This document shows, in pieces, positions 7,678-25,138 of a stretch of 64,000 bases of DNA. This DNA comes from an uncultured Nitrososphaerota archaeon (GTDB taxonomy: Archaea; Thermoproteota; Nitrososphaeria; Nitrososphaerales; Gagatemarchaeaceae). Made by a program: the position numbers and the translations under genes. Below the pieces are notes generated by a model, which worked only from the letters and a program-made list of their open reading frames with translations, did not search any database and was not told the origin of the DNA. The stretch spans positions 192,001 to 256,000 of the forward strand of contig CAVRAG010000008.1 of assembly GCA_963718895.1 (NCBI GenBank), read 5' to 3'. Every line of letters begins with the position of its first letter. Within the stretch, counting starts at the first letter, position 1.

Positions 7678-9315
7678 GTGCCGAAGTACATTTTCGTCAC
7701 CGGCGGAGTCATGTCAGGCCTCGGCAAGGGCATAACGACGTCTTCTCTCGCGAAGCTGCTCCAGCTCTCTGGCCTCAGGGCGACCTGCCTGAAGATAGAC
7801 CCGTACCTCAACTTCGACGCAGGGACGATGAACCCGATAGCGCACGGTGAGGTGTTCGTCACCGACGATGGGGGCGAGGCGGACATGGATATCGGGAACT
7901 ATGAGAGATTCCTCAACGTCGACCTGAGCAAGGAGAACAACATAACGACTGGGCAAGTCTACAGGAAGGTAATAGAAGACGAGAGGAAGGGAAAGTACCT
8001 CGGCAAGTGCGTCCAGATCATACCTCACATAACCGACGAGATCAAGAGGAGGATCAGGGAGGTGGCTGCCAAGAGCGCGGCTCAGGTGGTCGTCGTCGAG
8101 TGCGGAGGTACGGTCGGAGACATCGAAAGCCAGCCGTTCATAGAGGCCTTCAGGCAGATGAGGCTCGAGGACGGGCTCAGGAACACCTACTTCATCCACG
8201 TGACCCTGGCGCCCCAGATAGACGTCGTCGGCGAGATGAAGACGAAGCCGACGCAGCACAGCGTGCAGGAACTCAGACGCATCGGAATCCAGCCGGACCT
8301 GATCATCGTGAGGGGCACAAAGGTCCTGCCGAAGGAGGCAAGGGAGAAGATAGCCCTGTTTACCAGCGTCCCACTTGAGAGCGTGATATCGAACCCCGAC
8401 GTCGCGTCGATCTACCAGGTACCCCAGGTCCTCTACGACGAGGGTGTGTTCAAGCCAATGGCGAGTCATCTTGGCATTAGGGCGAGGAAGACAGACCTCA
8501 CGGCCTGGAAGGCGATCTCCTCAAGGTTCGTCGACTTCGATGACACCCTCAGGGTGGCCATGGTGGGCAAGTACGTGACGCTCATGGACAGCTACGTCAG
8601 CGTCAACCAGGCGCTGCACCACGCCGCAGCCGCAAGGAACGTGGGTGTGGACATCCGCTGGATAGAATCGGAGGAATTCGAAGGAGACCCCGCTAGCCTC
8701 AAGGTCCTCGAGTCGGTCGACGGCATAGTTCTCCCGCAGGGATACGGGAAAAGGGGGACCGAGGGCAAGATAGCGGCCGCAAACTTCGCCAGGGAAAGGG
8801 GCATACCCCTGTTGGGTCTCTGCTTTGGATTCCAGCTTTCAATTGTCTCGTTTGCCAGGCATGTGCTGGGCCTCGCGGGCGCCAACTCGACCGAGATCGA
8901 CCCCCAGACCCCCGATCCTGTAATTGACCTGCTCCCCGAACAGAGAAAGATATCTGACCTCGGAGGCACGATGAGACTCGGCGGCCACGACATCACTCTT
9001 CTCAGGCCCAGTCTCGCGTACGAGGTCTACAGCAAGAAGACCATAAGAGGGAGGCACCGGCACCGCTTCGAGCTGAACCAGAGCTACTCCCAGAGGTTCG
9101 AAGAAGCCGGCCTGCACTTCTCTGCTTTCAGCGACGGTGGAAGGAGAGCCGAGATACTGGAGCTCAAGGACCACCCATTCTACATGGGGACCCAGTTCCA
9201 TCCCGAGTACGTGAGCAGGCCCGAGGTCCCGGAGCCGATATTCGTGGCTTTCATGAAGGCGGCGCGGACGAGAGCCGAGGGCAGCGCCAGAGAAAAGCTC
9301 AGGATTACGGCCTAG
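7678..9315 (+). CDS. pyrG: CTP synthase
   Basis: KYIFVTGGVMSGLGKG, KTKPTQHSV, glutaminase LGLCFGFQ and QFHPE motifs; GTG start at 7678. Confidence 0.97.
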   Translation: MPKYIFVTGGVMSGLGKGITTSSLAKLLQLSGLRATCLKIDPYLNFDAGTMNPIAHGEVFVTDDGGEADMDIGNYERFLNVDLSKENNITTGQVYRKVIEDERKGKYLGKCVQIIPHITDEIKRRIREVAAKSAAQVVVVECGGTVGDIESQPFIEAFRQMRLEDGLRNTYFIHVTLAPQIDVVGEMKTKPTQHSVQELRRIGIQPDLIIVRGTKVLPKEAREKIALFTSVPLESVISNPDVASIYQVPQVLYDEGVFKPMASHLGIRARKTDLTAWKAISSRFVDFDDTLRVAMVGKYVTLMDSYVSVNQALHHAAAARNVGVDIRWIESEEFEGDPASLKVLESVDGIVLPQGYGKRGTEGKIAAANFARERGIPLLGLCFGFQLSIVSFARHVLGLAGANSTEIDPQTPDPVIDLLPEQRKISDLGGTMRLGGHDITLLRPSLAYEVYSKKTIRGRHRHRFELNQSYSQRFEEAGLHFSAFSDGGRRAEILELKDHPFYMGTQFHPEYVSRPEVPEPIFVAFMKAARTRAEGSAREKLRITA

Positions 9316-9583: not shown

Positions 9584-11536
9584 CTACGGACCAGGGTGCG
9601 CAGTGATCATGTTCAACACCGCTGGTTGGCCGTTCTTGACCGCAGCGAGTCCCCTCTGCAGCGCCGGGACCACCTGAGCCGGATCGGTCACCTTCTCGCC
9701 GTAACCTCCCATGGCCTGACACACCATCTCGTATGAAGGCGCGACGTGCGAGGTCTTGGAGAGCGAGAGGTTGCTGCCCAGGTCCGACAGCCCGTTCGTG
9801 ACGGCGTAGCCCTTGGGATAGGCGCCTGTAAGAGCCGACTTCACGGCGCCCCAAGAGGTGTTGGCGTCAATCACGGTTAGGAACGGCAGGCTGTGTCTGG
9901 TTGCAGCGAAGAAGACCGCGCTCGGCACTCCGTACATGTACGCCCCATCGCCACAACCAGCGATGACGGTCTTGTTCGGTGCGGCGAGCTTGGCTCCGAG
10001 GGCCATTCCACCCCACTGGCCGAGTGTCGAGGAAGGCGCAGTACCAAGGTAGCTCCCCGGTTGCGTGACCGCCCAGGTTGCCGATGACGGGCCTATCTCG
10101 TTCACCAAGATGGTGTTGTTGTCGATCACTTGTCCCATGCAGTAGCCCACCCAGCTGGCGTTGATCGGAGTGTCGTTGGCGTGGCTCTGTGCGCTGGCGA
10201 TGGCGGCCTGCCACGTCGTGTTGTGGCTTGCCGCTATCGTGGCTCGACGATTGCTTATCGTGCCCTGCAGCGAGCTGTTCATGCCCACGATCTCGCTCGT
10301 CTGCTCCAAGATGGCGCTCAGAGCAAGGTCGGTGCGCGCGGTTATGCGCACGTCAGCCGGGAAGAAGGCGTCGAACGGGTATGGGTTGACGAAGAGCGGG
10401 TCGCTCGCTATCGTGATGTAGCTCGCGCTCGAGTTAGGGACTATGCCCGACGACTTCGTGTTCCACGGGCCTGCCGTGTCGATGGAGACTATGACGTCGG
10501 CTTGACTCAGGGGTATCGTCGCCGACATCGGGTCGGTGGTCGGGTAGTTGAGGAAGCTTCCAAGAGCGGAGCTCACAGGTATGGCAAGCTGGTTCGCAAG
10601 CATGACGAGAGGCGGGACCGCAAGCGGGTTCTTTCCGACGCCTGGACCCGTCGTGCTACCGCCCGTCAGTATCACAGGGTTCTTGGCGTTGGCGAGCAGC
10701 TGGGCAGCCTGCACCACCGCATCAGGGTCGGGTGCGGCCGGAGCCGATGGGGTGAACAGTTCCTGGGGCTGAATGGTCACGCTCGTGGCTGTGTCCGCGC
10801 CGAGGTCGCAGGGCAGCATCAGATAGACCGGTCCCTTCGGATCCGTCATCGCTATCTGCAACGCCCTGGCCACCACTCCAGGTATCTGGTCGATCGTCTT
10901 GAACTCGTAGTCGTATTTCACGTACTGCCTGATCAGGCCGCCCTGGTCGTAGCTCTCCTGGCCTTGTGGACCTTGGTCCGATAGCAGGTTGCCGGTCTCA
11001 GTCCAGGACCTCTTTCCACCGATGATTATGGCGGGTATCTGCTCCGTGAACAGGTTTGCGAGGTGCGCTTCGCTGTTGGACGGGCCTACGATGACGTGGT
11101 ACCCGAGAATCGCCGGGGTTCCGCTGATAGCGGCGTACCCCGCTGCCATCTCAGTGGCGGCGTTCTCGTGAGGAACCTCGAGTACTTGGGGGAACGGTTG
11201 CCCAGCTACTTGCCTCTTGGCGAAGGCGTCGATCAGCGCTGGCCAGTCTGTCCCGGGATTGAGCAGCCAGTAATTCAGCCCCAACGCGGTCGTCGCCTCT
11301 ACGAGCGCCTGCGCGCCGTTCTCAACCTGGATGACCTGTGGCTGCGTCCTGGGGAGCATGGCCTTCGCCTTTCTCGACGGTTGCTTTCTCTCTGCGCGGG
11401 GATCCGCGTGAACGGGGTGTCCCATGGATAAGGCCGCGGCCCCCACGCCTACAGCCCCCACGCCCATCGCTGCGGACTTCACGAATCCTCGCCTTGTGAT
11501 CTTGTTTGTCACTTTTTCCTCGAGAGTCTGAGTCAT
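9584..11536 (-). CDS. Thiamine-diphosphate-dependent enzyme (acetolactate synthase-like superfamily) with an N-terminal twin-arginine signal peptide
   Basis: NPGTD and PHENAA Pyr domain; GDGAYMY...ANTSWGAV ThDP motif; N-terminus TRRGFVKS + hydrophobic stretch + VHA. Confidence 0.85.
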   Translation of the reverse strand: MTQTLEEKVTNKITRRGFVKSAAMGVGAVGVGAAALSMGHPVHADPRAERKQPSRKAKAMLPRTQPQVIQVENGAQALVEATTALGLNYWLLNPGTDWPALIDAFAKRQVAGQPFPQVLEVPHENAATEMAAGYAAISGTPAILGYHVIVGPSNSEAHLANLFTEQIPAIIIGGKRSWTETGNLLSDQGPQGQESYDQGGLIRQYVKYDYEFKTIDQIPGVVARALQIAMTDPKGPVYLMLPCDLGADTATSVTIQPQELFTPSAPAAPDPDAVVQAAQLLANAKNPVILTGGSTTGPGVGKNPLAVPPLVMLANQLAIPVSSALGSFLNYPTTDPMSATIPLSQADVIVSIDTAGPWNTKSSGIVPNSSASYITIASDPLFVNPYPFDAFFPADVRITARTDLALSAILEQTSEIVGMNSSLQGTISNRRATIAASHNTTWQAAIASAQSHANDTPINASWVGYCMGQVIDNNTILVNEIGPSSATWAVTQPGSYLGTAPSSTLGQWGGMALGAKLAAPNKTVIAGCGDGAYMYGVPSAVFFAATRHSLPFLTVIDANTSWGAVKSALTGAYPKGYAVTNGLSDLGSNLSLSKTSHVAPSYEMVCQAMGGYGEKVTDPAQVVPALQRGLAAVKNGQPAVLNMITAHPGP

Positions 11537-11540
11537 TTGC

Positions 11541-11570
11541 TTACAAATGTTTACAAGTGCAAACAAGTGT
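11541..11570. repeat. Three phased 10-bp direct repeats (ACAARTG core)
   Basis: ttacaaatgt / ttacaagtgc / aaacaagtgt, immediately upstream of the ThDP enzyme start. Confidence 0.6.
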
Positions 11571-11801
11571 ATACGGCTTGTCCCGAACCAGTTAGGGGTG
11601 CCTCATGAACAGGCTCGATGGCAACTCCGGATGGATTAGCGACCGGTCGTCGGGATCGCTCCAGATTCCAGATGAGGGGGAATCAGAACAAGAGGTTGCA
11701 GATCTCGCCACTTCCCGTCGTTGCGCTACCGCCCTGCTCGATGTCGACTGTGTTGTTGCCGTAGCCTTATTTACATACCCTACCCCCACGACAACCCAAC
11801 A

Positions 11802-12428
11802 TTGGCGAGAACCAGTATCGCGGTCGATAAAGCGATTGCTGATTCCCTAGCCCAGGAAGCAGATAAGCAGAACAAGACGCTCTACGGGCTGGCTAACGAG
11901 TCTCTCGGGGATGTCTTGAAAATCTGGGAAGAAGGAGGGTCAAGCAAGGAGATATTCCCATCTTGGGACTTCGGCCGAATCCTAAAGGATACTGATTCGC
12001 TGCCGGTTCCAGGGGTTCTGATAGAGAAGATGGTGAAGAGAATGTATTCGGTAGACAGCAAGTGGTTGCTAAAGGCCATGTTCGATGAGGGTGTGAAGAT
12101 CGGCTCCTATCTCAAGATGCGCTTCCCTGATTTCGAAGACTTGATTCCGAGATTGTTTCAGCTTCAGGAGTTTCTCCCGGTTAAGAGGATCGAGTTTGAG
12201 CAGGTCGGCACAAGTACCGATAAAATGAAAATAGCCATTCGTATCCTAGGAATGGGTCCTTCTCTTGAGGCGACAGAGTGTACGAATCAATTCATCAAAG
12301 GTCTGTTGTCAAGGTATCCCTACAAAATAACTTACACCAGAATTACCGAAGGCATCATCGAGACCACGGTCACGAAGGAGGAGACCAAGAGGAAGACTCG
12401 AGCCGCTGCGCAGAAGTCGGTTGATTGA
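11802..12428 (+). CDS. Putative transcriptional regulator (RHH-like N-terminus, V4R-like C-terminus)
   Basis: MARTSIAVDKAIADSL...KTLYGLANESL resembles a ribbon-helix-helix; lower-GC codon usage. Confidence 0.5.
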   Translation: MARTSIAVDKAIADSLAQEADKQNKTLYGLANESLGDVLKIWEEGGSSKEIFPSWDFGRILKDTDSLPVPGVLIEKMVKRMYSVDSKWLLKAMFDEGVKIGSYLKMRFPDFEDLIPRLFQLQEFLPVKRIEFEQVGTSTDKMKIAIRILGMGPSLEATECTNQFIKGLLSRYPYKITYTRITEGIIETTVTKEETKRKTRAAAQKSVD

Positions 12429-12601: not shown

Positions 12602-13534
12602 CTAGTGCTCCGCGAAGTAGGCGCTGGCGACCTTCAGGGCCAATCTGACCACGTCAACCGCATCGTGCGCGAAGAGATAGAGGCCCGGCTCAAGCCCTGG
12701 AGCCCCTGGATCGATGACCGCTTCTATGGGGCGGGTCGCCCGTCTTAGAGCTACGGTGAGGGAGCGAATCATCTCCGTGTCGTTTTTCACATTAGCCTCC
12801 TCGAGCACAATCGGACTCATCTTCATTTCGCGCAAAGCTCGCCGCATCTTCTGATCATACCTCACGTTCATCGAGGCCCTCATGGATCTATCGTGGGACA
12901 TCATCGCGAGCAGCACGTTCGCAACATGAGTGGACGCGCCGTATTCCGGCCTCATGAAAGATCGGGCCCTGCCCCCGACCTTTACGATTCTCCCTGGGAC
13001 AGCCACGATCTCCTGCACGGAGGAGGCTCCCTCCGAAGCGTACGCGATGTTGACGGAGACTTCCGGCATGATTCCCACGAACTGGTGAGAGCCCTCGACC
13101 ATCCGGACAGCCTCTGCCACGTGCTCTATCGCATCCCCGGAGCGGGTCTCGCTACCACCGAAGGCTTTGATGCAAACGTCGCACTGTGCTAGCTGTGGGT
13201 AGAGTGAGCGGTGCGGTCCGCACATGGAGCCCCTCCCCAGGATGTCTGACCAGAGAGAGTAGAGGGTATTGACGGCATAGACGGGGTTCTTCTTCAGGTC
13301 CTCTGCAAGCAGAGAGGCGTAGAGTCGGCCCTCCTCGTCAGAGATCCCCAGACCACGAAGGAGCTCGGCCGACCTTACCTCTGACCTTAGGTACAGGCTA
13401 ACCGAGGCTTGGGTCACGCCCATGAGGCCGGCTATCCTTCCCTGGGACAACCCCTCCTCGGAGAGGCGCTTGGCTACGGCCTGCCTCATCGCGGGCAGAA
13501 AGGAGTCCACCATCATCTCGCATGGCGGGTGCAC
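12602..13534 (-). CDS. thiR: ThiR-type regulator (HTH + ThiN/thiamine-phosphate-sensing domain)
   Basis: PPCE...GLSQGRIAGLMGVTQASVSLYL HTH; MPEVSVNIAYA, AVPGRI and YGASTHVA ThiN motifs. Confidence 0.8.
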   Translation of the reverse strand: MHPPCEMMVDSFLPAMRQAVAKRLSEEGLSQGRIAGLMGVTQASVSLYLRSEVRSAELLRGLGISDEEGRLYASLLAEDLKKNPVYAVNTLYSLWSDILGRGSMCGPHRSLYPQLAQCDVCIKAFGGSETRSGDAIEHVAEAVRMVEGSHQFVGIMPEVSVNIAYASEGASSVQEIVAVPGRIVKVGGRARSFMRPEYGASTHVANVLLAMMSHDRSMRASMNVRYDQKMRRALREMKMSPIVLEEANVKNDTEMIRSLTVALRRATRPIEAVIDPGAPGLEPGLYLFAHDAVDVVRLALKVASAYFAEH

Positions 13535-13539
13535 GCTAC

Positions 13540-13560
13540 AAGTCACTTGTCAAGTGATTT
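13540..13560. promoter_or_regulatory. Palindromic operator, probably bound by ThiR
   Basis: AAGTCACTTG-T-CAAGTGATTT (core TCACTTG-N-CAAGTGA is perfect) abutting TTTATAAA; an extra half-site TCACTTG at about 13586. Confidence 0.7.
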
Positions 13561-13589
13561 ATAAACGGGATGCCGACCTACCCGATCAC

Positions 13590-14171
13590 TTGACTTTCTC
13601 AGGTCCGCGCAGGAGCCTGAAGCTTGCGGTGACGGCGGTCTTCGCGTCCCTGATTGCGCTTGGAACGTTCTTCTCCATCCCCGCGCCCATGCCCCTCTAC
13701 GAAATCACGTGGTCTCCGGCCATCTACCTGGCCCTGTCTGTTCTCGTTGACAGCGGGACCGCCTTCTCGGCGACCGCGATCGGTGGGTTCATAGGCGAAC
13801 TGATAAACATCACTTACAAAGGCGGATCTCCCATCTACCCGTTCGGCATGATCTGGGCCCGCGGCCCCGAGGTGCTGATAGTCATCTGGGGGGCCAGGAA
13901 GGGGACGAAGTGGCTAGCCGTCTCCATGGTGATAGCTACGGTTTTCGAGACCCTCGCCTTCTTCTTCCCTGACTGGTTGTTCTACAACTATGCGCTCTTT
14001 CAGTATCAGGTTCCGAGCGGCTCGACCGCGCTGGGGTTGGCAGCCTTCGATTTCGGGACACTAGTCGACGTCGCGTGGATCCCCGTGGCTTTCGGCATCA
14101 TCTATGCGGCAGGCCCTGCCTTCAAGAGGCTAGGATTCAAGTCAAACCTTCAAGAACCCAACAAGCCCTAG
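13590..14171 (+). CDS. ECF transporter S component (likely thiamine or precursor)
   Basis: LAVTAVFASL and AIGGFIGELI S-component pattern; divergent from thiR. Confidence 0.7.
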   Translation: MTFSGPRRSLKLAVTAVFASLIALGTFFSIPAPMPLYEITWSPAIYLALSVLVDSGTAFSATAIGGFIGELINITYKGGSPIYPFGMIWARGPEVLIVIWGARKGTKWLAVSMVIATVFETLAFFFPDWLFYNYALFQYQVPSGSTALGLAAFDFGTLVDVAWIPVAFGIIYAAGPAFKRLGFKSNLQEPNKP

Positions 14172-20290: not shown

Positions 20291-22299
20291 ATGGCCGACC
20301 CCATCCGTGCGAGCTACCTGTTCCTGCCCTGGTACGCTCCCGTGGTCGTCTACGCGACGTTCTTCGTCTGTGGGGCGGTGATGATCTACGGCCTCTACCG
20401 GCACCTCGCAAGATACGGCTTGGGACCGAGGCAGTTCTTTGCGCTGGCATCGAAGGACGCGGGCGCCAAAATCAGGAGGTTCGTAGACTTCGGACTGGAA
20501 CAGAGAAGGGTCCTCGCAGGGGGCGAGGGGGGCGTCATGCACGGCGCGATCTTCTTCGGTTTCCTGATGCTCCTAGCTTACACCACTCTGATTTTCGTGC
20601 AGAGCGACGTGCTCCCCCTCTTCACCAACGTGCTGTTCCTCCAGGGCGGGTTCTACCTGACGCTCGAGTTCCTGGGCGACGCCCTCGGCACGGCCTTCGT
20701 GGTCGGACTCGTCATCGCCCTCTACAGGAGGTTCGTGCAGAGGCCCGACAAGCTCAGGACCGGCTGGGACGACTACCTGGTCCTAGGGACGCTCGTCTGG
20801 ATCGGGGCGTCCGGGTTCCTCCTGGAGTCGCTCAGGCTCGCGACGCACCCAAGCCAGTTCGCATCCTACTCGCCGGTGGGCGACGCCCTCTCGGTCCTGG
20901 TGTCCACCCTGTTCTCGGGCGGCCAGATGACTGTCATCTATCAGGGAGTCTGGTACGCCCACATGTTCTCGGTCTTCGGCCTCCTGGCGCTCGTCCCTTA
21001 CACGAAGCTCATCCACGTCTTCACTTCGGGCGCCAACGTGGCCGTGGCAGAGCAGAGGCCCATGGGGCGGCTCAGCACGCCCTTCAGCCTCTCGGCGATG
21101 CTCGAATCGGGCAGCGTCGAGGCACCCCCAAACGTGACCTCGAGCTCGGACTTCAAACCCCTCCAACTCCTCGCGCTCAGACGCGTGCACAAACTGCGGC
21201 AGGTGCCAGGACGTCTGCCCCGCCTACGCCGCGGGTAGAGACCTATCACCCCGCGTCGTCGTCAGGGACCTGGGGTCCGGGATGAAACAGGTTGCTGCCG
21301 ACGCGCTCTCGAGCGGGCTCATAAGGGAGCAGGAGCTCTGGTCCTGCACCACGTGCAACGCCTGCGTGAACGTCTGCCCTGTCTTCATAAACCAAGTCGA
21401 CTACATCGTCGAGTTCAGGCGGACGCTCGTCGCCGAGAACAGACTCGACCCGATGAAGCGGGCCTTCCTCGAGAACATCGCACGGTCCAACAATCCCTTC
21501 GGCCTCCCCCAGAGCGACCGACAGACCTGGCTGGCGAGATCTGGGAGTGCCCACGGTCAAGGAGAACCCGGGAGCCGAATATCTCTACTGGGTAGGCTGC
21601 CAGGGCAGCTACGATCCCCGGGCCCGGAAGATAACCGAGTCCGTAGTCCAGATACTCAAAGCTGCCGAGGTCGACTTCGCGGTCCTTGGGAACGAGGAGG
21701 TCTGCACGGGCGAGCCCGTCCGGAGGATGGGCGAAGAGGCAAGGTTCCAGGAGCTCGCGCTCCGCAACATCGAGACTCTGAACTCGGCGGGGGCGAAGAA
21801 AGTGGTTGTGCACTGCGCGCACTGCTTCAACACCTTCCTCAACGAATACCCGGAGTTTGGGGGGAACTTCCAGGTGATCCACCATTCGCAGCTGATATGG
21901 GAGCTCATCAAGGTGGGGAGGCTGAAGCCCCGAGGCGCTTCAGGGAAGGTGACCTTCCACGACCCCTGCAACCTAGGAAGGATCAACGGCATCTTCGACG
22001 AGCCGCGCGAGGTGCTCGGCTCGCAGGAGGGACTGGAGCTGGTCGAGATGAAGAGGAACAGGTCCAACAGCTTCTGCTGCGGAGGGGGCGGGGCCAACGT
22101 CTGGTACGAGGTCCCGGAGAAGAAGAAGGTGGGCGTGATAAGGGTCGAGGAGGCGATTCAAGCTGGCGCGGAGACCATTGCGGTCGGGTGTCCCTTCTGC
22201 GTCACGATGTTCGAGGACGCGGCGAAGAGCCTCGGCAACGAGAAGCTGGAGGTCAAGGACGTCGCCGAGATCGTTGCGGAGAACCTCCCCAAGGCCTAG
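20291..22299 (+). CDS. Membrane Fe-S oxidoreductase (NarI-like TM + 4Fe-4S + CCG domains; FadF/HdrD-like), two frameshifts
   Basis: TM domain with His ligands; CTNCGRCQDVCP and CTTCNACVNVCP in alternate frames; HDPCNLGR and FCCGGGG; shifts near 21180 and 21540. Confidence 0.82.
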
Positions 22300-23216
22300 G
22301 GGCCGAGGGCTGCGATGAGCGCTGGGACCACCTGGTAGAGGTCGCCGACAATCCCGTAGTCGGCCACCTGGAATATAGGGGCCTGCTTGTCCTTGTTGAT
22401 GGCCACGATGACCTTGGAGTCCTTGATTCCTGCCACGTGCTGCAGCTGCCCTGAGATTCCAACCGCGACGTAGAGTTTCGGCCTGACGTAGATGCCCGTC
22501 AGCCCGATGTGGTGTTCCTCGCTCAACCAGCCGAGGTCCGAGGAGAGGGGCCTCGAGGAGCCCAGCGCGCCTCCCAGCGCCTTCGCGAGATCCTCGGCCA
22601 GGGCGAGGTCTTCCTTCTTCTTGAAGCCTCTGCCCGCCGAGACGATGATCTCCGCAGTCCTGAGGTCGACCGACCCTCGCGACCGGGGCCTCGTCTCTAT
22701 GTACCTCACTCTCGATGAGAGCCCGGTGAGCGTCATTTCCTCGACCGTCTGCGCGCCGCCCTGGTCCGCCTGGTAACAGCCCGAAGGGACGAGCGCGATG
22801 CACGGCAGCCCGGAGACCACGGTCGCGTTGAATCGGCCGGCGTAGACCCCTCGGACGCCCTTCAGCTCGGCCCCATCGAACTTCAGATCCCTGACATCGC
22901 TCAGCACGCCCATCCCCGCCATCACGGCCAGCTTGGCCGCGATCTGCCTCCCCAGTTTGGTGGCGCCGATGAGAACGATGGACGAGTTGTTTGCCTTGGC
23001 GGCTGCGGCCAGGGCCTCGGCGATGAGCTCGTAGTCCCCGGGGAGGCGTCGGTCCGACCTCAGCAGGAGCACGTGCCCCGAGAGGCCGGCTTCGTCAAGC
23101 GCGTCGACAACGACGGTGGAGGAGGTCCCTCCAGCCGTCGCTGCGATCATGGATGCTCCCCTGGAGAGCTCCAGGGCCAGTCCGCGGTCATCCGAGTACG
23201 AGAGGACGCCGATCAT
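22296..23216 (-). CDS. etfA: Electron transfer flavoprotein alpha subunit
   Basis: [28 protein letters not shown] and [11 protein letters not shown] motifs. Confidence 0.95.
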
Positions 23217-23974
23217 ATCACTCCCTCCTTTCTTAGGGCTTCCACAAGCTTCCTGGAACTATCTTCGGCCGTCCCCTCGAAGACCACCCTCTTCCTGCTC
23301 AGGGCCTGCACGTGGACGTCCGCCACCGTGACCCTGACAGGGGGGAGACCCTCGTCCTTCAGCGAGTCGAGCGTGACTTCCTCCATCGGCTTCTTCGACG
23401 CCTGCATTATCTGCAGCAGCGTGGGATACCTTGGCTCGTTGATCTCACTCACGACGGACACGACCGCGGGGAGGCTGGCCTCGGCCACTTCTTCGTGCTC
23501 CTCGAGGGCCAGCTCGCATCGCACCGAGCCGTCGCCGACTTCGAGCCTACGGACGTAGCCCATGAACGGCATCCCTAGCCACTCGGCGGCCATGGGACCG
23601 ACGAGACCGTGATAGGTGTCTGAGGCACCCTCGGAGAAGATCGCCAGGTCGACAGGTCCGGCGCGCTTGATTGCGCGCGAGATGTAGTAGGAGGTGGATG
23701 CCGCGTCGAGTTGCTGGGATGAGTTCACCGCCAGGGCCCTGTCAGAGCCCATCGCGAGCGCCTCCTTGAGGCTCTTCTTCCAGTCGCCGCTCCCTAGGCT
23801 CACGACCGTCACGGTCCCGCCCTTCTTCTCCTTGATCCTCACGGCCTCCTCGACGGCGTTCCGGTCGAAGGTGCTCATCTTGGATAGGGCACCCTGGAGC
23901 TGGGGCTTCCCTGACGGGTCCGCCCTCAGCTCGGATTCGTCGACGGCGTGCTTCACGCAGACCACGATGTTCAT
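23213..23974 (-). CDS. etfB: Electron transfer flavoprotein beta subunit
   Basis: MNIVVCVK, AVEEAVRIKE, ALAMGSD and INEPRYP motifs; own SD GGAGGTGA. Confidence 0.93.
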   Translation of the reverse strand: MNIVVCVKHAVDESELRADPSGKPQLQGALSKMSTFDRNAVEEAVRIKEKKGGTVTVVSLGSGDWKKSLKEALAMGSDRALAVNSSQQLDAASTSYYISRAIKRAGPVDLAIFSEGASDTYHGLVGPMAAEWLGMPFMGYVRRLEVGDGSVRCELALEEHEEVAEASLPAVVSVVSEINEPRYPTLLQIMQASKKPMEEVTLDSLKDEGLPPVRVTVADVHVQALSRKRVVFEGTAEDSSRKLVEALRKEGVI

Positions 23975-25138
23975 CGCGAACCTGTCACCTCCTTTCCAGC
24001 CACCAGCATCCTGAGCGACCTCTGAGGCCCCCTCGCCTATTGCGAGCAGACGCGCGTCCCTCCAGTGGCGGTGCACTTCGCCGTTCGTGTAACCGTAGCC
24101 ACCGAATACCTGTATGACCTGGTCGCAGACGCGTGCCGCCATCTCGCTCGAGAGTATCTTGGCCTGCGCGGCCTCCGAAGCGTAGTCGAGGCCCATCTCT
24201 CTCAGCCGCGAGGCGTAGAGGCAGAGCAGGCGCCCGGCGGTAATCTCGGTCCTCATGTTCGCGATCTTCTCCCGGGTCATCTGCAGGTCGGAGAGCTTCT
24301 GTCCGAAGAGCTCCCTCTGCTTGCTGTAGGCCAACGCCTTCCCGTAGGCCGTGCGCGCGATCCCGACACATATCGACCCCATGATTATCCGGCTACCGTT
24401 CAGCATCGCCTTGGCGTACTCGAACGCCTTCCCCTCCTGACCAAGGAGGCTCTCGGCGGGGACCTCACAGTCCTGGAACCTGACTTCGCCGGTCCTGGAG
24501 CCCCTCATCCCCAGCTTCGGGATGTCGTCCCCGGTGGTCAGGCCCGGCGTTGAGCGGTCGACCAGAAAGGCGGAGTGGCCCGTCGCCGTCTTAGCGAAGA
24601 CGAGGTACACGTCAGCGTCGCCGGCGTTGGTGATGAAGGTCTTCGTTCCGTTGATCACATAATCCGAACCGGCGCGGGTCGCCTCCGTGGACATCGACCT
24701 CGCATCGGATCCTGAGGAGGGCTCCGTCAGCGAGAAGGCCGCGAGCTTCCTGCCGGATATGAGATCGGCGACCACCGAGTCCCCTTGGGAGGCGGTCCCG
24801 AAGCGAAGGACGCCCTCGGCGACCATGTTGTGGACCCCCATGCTCATGGCGGTCGGGGCGTCAGCCGATCCGACGAGCTCCATGGCTAGGGCGTAGACTC
24901 CGAAAGGAAGGGAGATTCCCCCGTGGGACTCGAAGGGAATCCTGCACAGTCCCTGGTCGAACAGCGCCTTGCGGACCCCGGCGATCCCTCCACTCTCAGC
25001 GTCGAAGCCGGGTGACTTGGGGGCGACCTCCGCCTCCAGAAAGTCCGCCAGCGACTCGAGCACGCTGCTGTAGCTGCCGTGGTCGGGCCCGTAGAAGCTC
25101 CCCAGGACGTTTTCGTGCTCTGGTTGGAAGAGGCCCAT
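23971..25138 (-). CDS. Acyl-CoA dehydrogenase (1-nt frameshift near the 3' end)
   Basis: AFSLTEPSSGSDA, KLGMRGSRT, QVFGGYGY and IGEGASEV motifs. Confidence 0.92.

Follow-up and report, generated by a model that had tools for sequence, protein, structure and literature searches.

Does the thiamine diphosphate (ThDP) enzyme encoded at positions 9584–11536 of the DNA analysed here leave the cell, and which chemistry would it perform outside? The DNA, 64,000 nucleotides of an uncultured Nitrososphaerota archaeon, is called the window throughout; the enzyme is referred to as P0001, its source genome as G000, other genomes as G001 onward, and further proteins and loci by P and L numbers. To our knowledge, enzymes of the ThDP decarboxylase family are treated as cytoplasmic in microbes. 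Our literature search, whose coverage did not extend to most subscription journals and to supplements (where predictions of twin-arginine translocation (Tat) substrates may stand), retrieved no paper whose title or opening lines of the abstract concerned an exported ThDP enzyme. Judged from its sequence, P0001 is very probably exported, with ThDP bound.

The G000 assembly comprises 3.13 Mb in 11 contigs and is 80.5% complete, the P0001 gene lying on contig C8. Its GC content of 59.7% fits the 54–62% described for the Gagatemarchaeaceae, an acid-soil family (PMC10640624); the host presumably lives in an acid habitat, and the main text of that paper does not contain the word “thiamin”.

Twin-arginine signal, translation start and composition

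The initial annotation read a Tat signal with a cleavage site at the N-terminus of the enzyme, and this reading held up in each of its parts:

9584..11536, minus strand: P0001 gene, a Tat-signal ThDP enzyme of PRK08327-like type, 650 residues, stop-free translation
11405..11536, minus strand: predicted Tat signal peptide, residues 1–44, matching PF10399, with equivalents in P0092, P0004, P0372 and P0095
11477..11497, minus strand: twin-arginine motif T-R-R-G-F-V-K, residues 14–20, read from the sequence
11420..11476, minus strand: uncharged Gly/Ala-rich h-region, residues 21–39, hydropathy of the best 13-mer 1.84
11405..11413, minus strand: predicted signal-peptidase site V-H-A (P41-V-H-A44, then D45) with Pro ahead, read from the sequence
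11357..11404, minus strand: basic linker (residues 45–59) and internal Met60, an alternative start at which the gene call of P0002 begins
11570..11588, minus strand: promoter-like element, GTTCGGG with TATA 15 bases after its start, the two beginning 52 and 37 bases ahead of the first ATG

The motif lies within the first 35 residues and fits the S/T-R-R-x-F-L-K type, and PF10399, the Rieske Tat-signal model of Pfam, passes its cut-off on residues 10–36 (25.5 versus 24 bits). As a signal rule we used our own criterion, the motif followed by a stretch of 13 uncharged residues, rather than SignalP or TatFind; shuffling residues 2–59 of P0001 satisfied this rule in 21 of 100,000 trials. There is no Cys lipobox, and residues 1–43 have a predicted local distance difference test score (pLDDT) below 50 in the AlphaFold2 model.

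The initial annotation had held that homologs lacking the twin-arginine peptide would speak against export; the peptide is retained. A motif and an h-region are present in P0092 (83% identity, SRRKFLR), in P0004, the ortholog from G007 (68%, TRRGFVK), in P0372 and the fragment P0158 (48%, SRRNFLK), and, as the KR variant SKREFLK, in P0095 (42%, locus L027), where a GGAGG ribosome-binding site stands ahead of the first ATG. A further ortholog of 66% identity is encoded at L028. The sites matching V-H-A in the orthologs are A-N-A, T-L-A and A-S-A. The motif is missing from P0002 and P0003 only through gene calls that begin downstream of it; P0001 and P0092, members of the same clusters, carry it, as does the locus L026. 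From K12 to K20, P0001 and the G007 ortholog share all nine residues, with five synonymous and no non-synonymous codon changes, and the ratio of non-synonymous to synonymous differences (pN/pS) over residues 12–37 of this pair is 0.18.

The promoter-like element keeps a constant inner spacing in three of three close orthologs, at −50/−35 in G007 and −46/−31 in L026. Its enrichment over the whole of G000 is not significant, a relaxed pattern giving 19 hits against 7–16 in 10 shuffles. One promoter-like stretch, GTTCGGACAAAGGCGTATA, occurs identically over 19 bases ahead of five small membrane or secreted open reading frames (ORFs) of G000 (C4:243017, C4:389060, C8:1169712, C8:1222467 and C10:28914).

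The amino acid composition is of the secreted type, as first described, being rich in S, T, N and Q and poor in E and R, and resembles that of the secreted proteins of G000. From about residue 49 onward, D+E+K+R make up 12.0%, E+R 5.0% and S+T+N+Q 25.6% of P0001; the corresponding figures for the other two ThDP enzymes of G000 are 19.4, 10.6 and 19.0%, and 22.4, 11.6 and 18.3%. Over 599 long ORFs of G000 without a predicted transmembrane segment, a set from our own filter that includes some false ORFs, D+E+K+R average 24.9 ± 4.6%, and P0001 (11.2%) holds the 11th-lowest place; the low-charge tail around it includes several Tat candidates or genes adjacent to such candidates. The 58 G000 ORFs that bear a signal or anchor at the N-terminus average 12.6%, and 221 retrieved proteins longer than 500 residues, signal-bearing ones included, average 19.7 ± 2.3%. 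Within the clade of P0001 (clade A in the tree below), charged residues amount to 10.8–11.5% in three close orthologs, 15.8–17.7% in P0005, P0095 and P0372, and 18.6–20.6% in members from Bathyarchaeia that lack the h-region, with 23.3% in the signal-less sister P0098; charge content thus tracks the presence of the signal only roughly.

The genome also carries Tat machinery (TatC at E = 3.8e-31 and three TatA matches), and TatC is found in G007 too. Overall, the sequence evidence supports Tat export of P0001 well, because the signal is conserved, the composition is of the secreted type, a promoter-like element precedes the first ATG and Tat genes are present in the genome.

Cofactor site, fold and proposed reaction

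The mature part was described at the outset as a complete ThDP enzyme. Both ThDP domains, PF02776 and PF02775, score over their Pfam cut-offs and the fold matches over its full length, which bears this out; the middle domain stays under its own cut-off (23.4 versus 30.4):

10970..11320, minus strand: pyrimidine-binding domain PF02776, residues 73–189, with G95-T96-D97, catalytic E124 (codon 11165–11167) and H147
10463..10711, minus strand: middle (TH3) domain PF00205, residues 276–358, below cut-off, probably free of flavin adenine dinucleotide (FAD)
9611..10075, minus strand: diphosphate-binding domain PF02775, residues 488–642, with G529-D530-G531 (9944–9952) and Mg-binding N559

E124, the cofactor-activating Glu (standard position 51), sits in H-E-N-A-A, and Q193 lies just past the PF02776 stretch. 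Over 146 aligned family rows, E124 is conserved in 146, H147 in 143, Q193 in 128, G529, D530 and G531 in 141, 137 and 143, and N559 in 141. The catalytic Glu and the diphosphate/Mg motif GDGX24-27N are those of the ThDP superfamily (PMC3534367), N559 standing 27 residues after G529-D530-G531. With these residues in place, P0001 is probably a working ThDP enzyme, not a degenerate binding protein.

The AlphaFold2 model, built from the 146 sequences, displays a complete decarboxylase fold with a mean pLDDT of 90.9. Foldseek places CDH, HKA synthase, benzaldehyde lyase and HACL at the top (template-modelling score ~0.7), and VIA-align puts benzoylformate decarboxylase (BFD) first (Z 36.6, root-mean-square deviation 2.8, 510 aligned residues, 24% identity), the others following at 34–35. 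BFD is likewise the best solved match of the family profile (E = 1.9e-81), in whose alignment T96, E124 and H147 of P0001 correspond to S26, E47 and H70, residues located at the substrate and cofactor of BFD (PMC6028569). With other ThDP lyases within ~2 Z units of BFD, the predicted fold does not single out one reaction. Aligned to the FAD enzyme CDH, P0001 reads D-T-A-G for G-S-R-L and A-S-D for D-T-D, stretches that we take to be FAD-binding; P0001 is probably FAD-free, and the comparison suggests that an FAD site was lost.

Among NCBIfam models the best for P0001 is NF006203/PRK08327 (447.5 bits, E = 6.5e-134; next family 148). This score falls below the cut-off of 456, as do those of two orthologs (455.1 and 430.5); the clade-mate P0095 exceeds it (515.8) and P0001 nests inside the family in the tree, and we class P0001 as PRK08327-like, not as a member. 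PRK08327 is not named in the papers of our literature search. PRK08327-like ThDP domains also stand behind adenylation and carrier domains in P0127, P0136, P0149 and P0177 (one of them with a thioesterase as well) and behind an alpha/beta hydrolase in P0140; such fusions may hint at the substrate of the family.

ThDP-Mg is bound between subunits and is synthesised inside the cell. Because the cofactor sits between subunits and is unavailable outside, such an enzyme would have to be folded already when it is exported, for which Tat, a carrier of folded and cofactor-loaded proteins, is the workable route. P0001 would fold, dimerise and take up ThDP-Mg in the cytoplasm, and Tat would move the folded, ThDP-loaded protein, which would be cleaved after A44 and act outside the membrane. 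As neither coenzyme A (CoA) nor NAD is found there, the reactions that would remain are non-oxidative decarboxylation, cleavage of ketols or diketones, carboligation, and oxidation with a carrier of single electrons. We favour a non-oxidative reaction, since no carrier gene is present at four archaeal loci, though cupredoxin genes lie near other Tat genes. A C–C bond would be split without CoA or NAD, a 2-oxo acid being decarboxylated (or a 2-hydroxy ketone or diketone split) to an aldehyde, which the Tat-exported PaoABC-like molybdo-enzymes of G000 would oxidise, leading to respiration. That P0001 is such a non-oxidative 2-oxo-acid decarboxylase or C–C lyase, feeding exported aldehyde oxidoreductases, has in our judgement about an even chance of being correct. 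Of the two roles that the initial annotation had offered, extracellular C–C bond chemistry stays, conditionally, as the best reading; repurposing as a thiamine-binding protein is unlikely, given that the catalytic Glu, His and Gln and the GDG..N motif are kept.

The predicted Tat secretome of G000 is large, with 59 candidates, 16 of which were scanned with Pfam: five matched FAD_binding_2, and two each gluconate-2-dehydrogenase subunit 3, Rieske and solute-binding models; NiFe small subunit, 2Fe-2S subunit, DUF1800 and metallophosphoesterase models were matched once each, and one candidate remained unmatched. A 2Fe-2S subunit with a Tat signal heads a molybdenum (Mo)/FAD operon of the xanthine-dehydrogenase/PaoABC kind, and G007 has six long matches to this subunit. 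Two regions of G000 show the layout, L076 (C8:607000–614000) and C8:620500–625400, the 2Fe-2S subunit having a Tat leader and the Mo and FAD subunits being signal-less and low in charge. Co-regulation of the P0001 gene with the PaoABC-like operon was considered and rejected: a similar GTTCGGG..TATA element precedes both, but it stands at only 2 of 27 Tat-candidate starts examined and is not significantly enriched.

Two other groups of exported oxidoreductases stand out in G000. Nine Tat-leader ORFs have similar N-termini (C4:219367, C8:109380, 307274, 315452, 461142, 854429, 856669, 1017590 and 1481761), and the five scanned all match FAD_binding_2 (flavocytochrome c/ketosteroid-dehydrogenase-like); this flavoprotein expansion is unusually large for an archaeon. 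Six more are of a single type (C3:15998, C7:656971, C8:83560, 87026, 290501 and 296089), two of which, when scanned, matched gluconate-2-dehydrogenase subunit 3; some of their neighbours are low-charge, signal-less oxidoreductase-like genes, with a cupredoxin gene nearby.

Several observations weigh against an exported, non-oxidative enzyme coupled to aldehyde oxidation. Regarding export, pN/pS over residues 12–37 is 0.52 (versus L026) and 0.57 in the other two ortholog pairs, which carry different, consensus-fitting motif variants; a Met is kept at 59–61 in the three closest orthologs (G000, G007 and L026) and at 51 in P0095; and P0005, inside clade A, is signal-less as called (from the protein call only). 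A non-covalently held ThDP, once lost outside, would presumably be irreplaceable. Regarding the reaction, E28 and H281 of BFD are unmatched in the profile alignment, where they fall on W98 and ~T360 (the conserved acid D97 lies one place before W98). The substrate is therefore probably not benzoylformate. The PaoABC-like genes are unlinked to the P0001 gene (~400 kb away) and score far below the PaoABC cut-offs, and aldehyde-oxidoreductase genes occur also in G001, a genome without a P0001-type enzyme. Finally, three bacterial Tat-ThDP loci adjoin cytochromes c, a hint of oxidative chemistry.

This last point belongs to the strongest competing explanation, by which P0001 is exported but oxidises its ThDP enamine in two one-electron steps, the acyl-ThDP being hydrolysed to an acid and the electrons passing to a blue copper protein in the archaeon and to cytochrome c in bacteria. 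Plasmid searches brought up three bacterial cases in which no more than 8 bases separate a ThDP gene with a Tat motif from the cytochrome genes behind it: Burkholderia sp. SFA1 (BBQ03345.1/BBQ03346.1; L080:3794–6357) and Caballeronia zhejiangensis (L084:8001–10564; 98% match to BBQ03345.1), each with a dihaem cytochrome c, and Novosphingobium sp. KACC 22771 (L081:3797–6446), with two monohaem cytochromes c; the SFA1 and Novosphingobium cytochromes share 43% identity over 84 residues. In G000 itself 11 cupredoxin matches were obtained, and several of them lie no further than ~2 kb from other Tat genes. However, the bacterial enzymes are only 22% identical to P0001 and belong to another clade, their joining being rejected (p about 9e-8, see below), and a search of the window, L021, L026 and L027 that recovered its positive control turned up neither a cupredoxin nor a secreted CxxCH ORF; nor, by inspection, did a secreted c-type cytochrome stand out in the CxxCH list of G000. 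We regard oxidation outside the cell, with either carrier, as unlikely, though it deserves to be taken seriously. As an observation apart, the Caballeronia locus adjoins a Rieske dioxygenase cluster and a porin.

It is improbable that P0001 stays in the cytoplasm, through a start at Met60 or a relic signal that no longer exports. The Met conserved at 59–61, at which the call of P0002 begins, would suit such a start, and the Bathyarchaeia relics described below show that the signal can decay inside clade A; yet the upstream frame is open in all three genomes, with intact motif and h-region, a promoter-like element lies before the first ATG, three motif variants fit the Tat consensus, and the charge is of the secreted type, 10.8% versus 19–21% in the relic-bearing relatives.

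Insertion site and possible repeated origin

The genes around P0001 are the following:

7678..9315, plus strand: pyrG (CTP synthase), bordering the insertion site on one side, assigned by domain match and synteny
11802..12428, plus strand: divergent gene of 208 residues, possible ligand-sensing regulator, with an ortholog at the same place in G007
12602..13546, minus strand: thiR-like gene with a ThiN domain and a weak helix-turn-helix (HTH), the other flank

Among the 22 further genomes available for the genus, pyrG abuts thiR in 19, within 36 bases in 17 and, as partial matches, within 270 bases in two. The exceptions are G007, which carries a 4.3-kb insertion with the P0001 ortholog, G002, where the two genes are on separate contigs, and G014, where neither was found. 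The P0001 gene and the divergent gene, which 2 of 23 genomes in the genus carry, thus appear to be an insertion at a conserved pyrG–thiR junction. Since pyrG and thiR abut without the P0001 gene in these 19 relatives, the thiR neighbourhood predates the gene, which weakens a functional link of P0001 to thiR and to the membrane protein beside it.

A lower-GC patch around the gene, as first reported, was not confirmed. The gene has 62.2% GC (77% at third codon positions), resembles its neighbours and is above the genome value, 77% of contig windows of the same length being lower; only the divergent neighbour is low (48.9%). On these values we reject, for the gene itself, both a low-GC island and a recent foreign origin.

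The initial annotation had also placed a thiR gene and the S component of an energy-coupling factor (ECF) transporter nearby. The first stands, by its ThiN domain and weak HTH; the second label is unconfirmed, as neither Pfam nor NCBIfam matched the protein at useful E-values. This membrane protein (13554–14171) occurs in 21 of 22 genus relatives, usually beside thiR, and is a candidate for an unnamed thiamine-related transporter. That P0001 is an exported thiamine or ThDP scavenger for it, with little or no catalysis, is the least probable explanation of all: both genes lie nearby and at L026 the P0001 ortholog directly follows the membrane-protein gene on the same strand, but the catalytic and cofactor residues are all kept, the neighbourhood predates the P0001 gene, the 42% ortholog at L027 has, by inspection, no such neighbours among the listed ORFs, and the membrane protein matches no ECF family.

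Pfam and NCBIfam gave no match for the divergent gene either, and the L026 locus has no ortholog of it. Its single-sequence model (pLDDT 51.9) shows H-NOX/TRAPP/DmpR and V4R-type likeness at E ≥ 2.4e-3, none at E ≤ 0.001, and its homologs have varied neighbours. The family, of ~200 residues with a weakly H-NOX/V4R-like C-terminal half, occurs in 19 of 121 order genomes sampled (11802–12428 and L085–L114) and is possibly an unnamed regulator family. Elsewhere in the window, the ORFs at 20291–22454 and 23213–25138 look broken or run together, which possibly reflects assembly indels; we take the former to be pieces of a membrane Fe-S oxidoreductase and the latter an acyl-CoA-dehydrogenase-like frame that continues into an ETF-beta-like frame.

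Among 40 relatives searched, the P0001 clade was found only in G007. A sample of 400 genomes of the phylum, themselves incomplete, yielded family members, with no Tat leader in 25 other readable N-termini and five loci without an ORF; an equally large sample of the class, likewise of incomplete genomes, gave five weaker matches, one of which was inspected. In G563 (L115:1489–3357) a PRK08327-like gene is split into two ORFs with one in-frame TGA. The signal rule was passed by 5 of 216 retrieved proteins of at least 500 residues (P0092, P0094, P0095, P0118 and P0183), and a follow-up search added P0245 (60% identity to P0183, TRRNFLK, 11.9% charged). P0183/P0245, with 11.5–11.9% charged residues, and P0118/P0371 represent two more PRK08327-like lineages that bear twin-arginine leaders, each apart from that of P0001. 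The bacterial P0368 has the motif and fails the 13-residue rule through a Lys in the h-region. In the ESM Atlas, clusters combining TPP_enzyme_N with TAT_signal (14–23% of members) occur in Pseudomonadota and Acidobacteriota; a homolog search from a signal-less Sinorhizobium protein returned only close relatives, mostly of 580–600 residues.

For the tree we hand-picked 48 rows out of several hundred and trimmed their leaders (LG+G4, quick search). Signal-bearing rows fall into four clades: A (P0001), B (P0183 and P0245), C (P0118) and D (bacterial), clade A (SH-aLRT 100) being sister to P0098/L030 (95). The tree has six changes of the signal label, at least five of them forced by starred branches, and a FastTree of 106 rows agrees for clades A–C. 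In an approximately unbiased (AU) test, uniting clades A–D is rejected at p = 2e-50 and A with D at p = 9.09e-08, the groups having been named after the first tree and the constrained sets including three clade-A rows without an intact signal. Test and tree share a simpler model, differing compositions among rows and a root that is not firm. Without a firmer root, gains and losses of the signal are indistinguishable on this tree, where signal-less rows far outnumber signal-bearing ones. The comparison nevertheless suggests that export of archaeal P0001 arose separately from the bacterial exported ThDP enzymes tested. Inside clade A, a Bathyarchaeia cluster (P0096; P0373, P0374, P0379–P0381 and P0383) keeps a KR-x-F/V-L-K relic without an h-region in seven of seven full-length members inspected, of 14: an apparent case of a decayed Tat signal and a return to the cytoplasm.

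Comparison with known systems

P0001 is, as predicted from its sequence, an exported, low-charge, archaeal variant of independent origin in a known enzyme superfamily. A wider proposal, which we consider somewhat less likely than not, is that ThDP enzymes gained Tat export at least four times independently, with some reversals, that the bacterial version tested is coupled to cytochrome c, and that the archaeal case is a stand-alone, low-charge enzyme cleaving C–C bonds of an organic acid or ketol non-oxidatively outside the cell, as the first step of a chain ended by Tat-exported Mo aldehyde oxidoreductases. If this is true, ThDP joins the cofactors carried by Tat, whose cargo range widens to a non-covalent coenzyme held between subunits; C–C cleavage is workable outside the membrane, and these archaea have an extracellular route of carbon turnover undescribed so far. 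The PRK08327-like family, large and so far uncharacterised, would also gain its first functional foothold. The signal, gained repeatedly and in one case visibly decayed, would offer a natural series for the adaptation of ThDP enzymes outside the cell, two separate clades having converged on ~11–12% charged residues, and an enzyme that keeps its ThDP there is a possible useful biocatalyst.

Within PRK08327, P0001 nests inside the family and is sister to a Candidatus Caldarchaeum protein scoring 671.7; it differs from the family by the added Tat signal and linker, by about half the charged residues, and by P-Q-G-Q-E in place of the consensus I-H-W-x-Q-E. BFD (MdlC; PDB 1bfd, 2v3w) and 4-hydroxybenzoylformate decarboxylase (7orx, 6qsi) have the closest solved fold and, like P0001, the S26/E47/H70 equivalents and probably no FAD. 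However, BFD is cytoplasmic, and P0001 scores only 105.1 bits on the MdlC model NF005485 (cut-off 493).

For export, the precedent is E. coli PaoABC, a periplasmic aldehyde oxidoreductase exported by Tat (PMC4273604, PMC3958847) as a folded, cofactor-loaded oligomer (a heterotrimer), as is proposed for P0001. The hitchhiker layout of the L076 and C8:620500–625400 operons resembles it; unlike P0001, PaoABC is a molybdenum/FAD/Fe-S enzyme, not a ThDP enzyme, and its counterparts in G000 are linked to the P0001 gene by proposal only.

A parallel in design is the bacterial Tat-ThDP/cytochrome c pair (BBQ03345.1/BBQ03346.1; WP_244808613.1/WP_244808614.1), in which a complete ThDP enzyme, ~645 residues long, likewise begins with a twin-arginine leader. 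The two differ in sequence (22% identity) and in position in the tree, the tested bacterial representatives P0368 and L081 forming a separate clade; the bacterial enzymes have an ordinary charge of 19–20% and a dedicated cytochrome gene, whereas the archaeal loci have no such gene. What the P0001 locus would contribute is thus an archaeal, independent and partner-less case of an exported ThDP enzyme.

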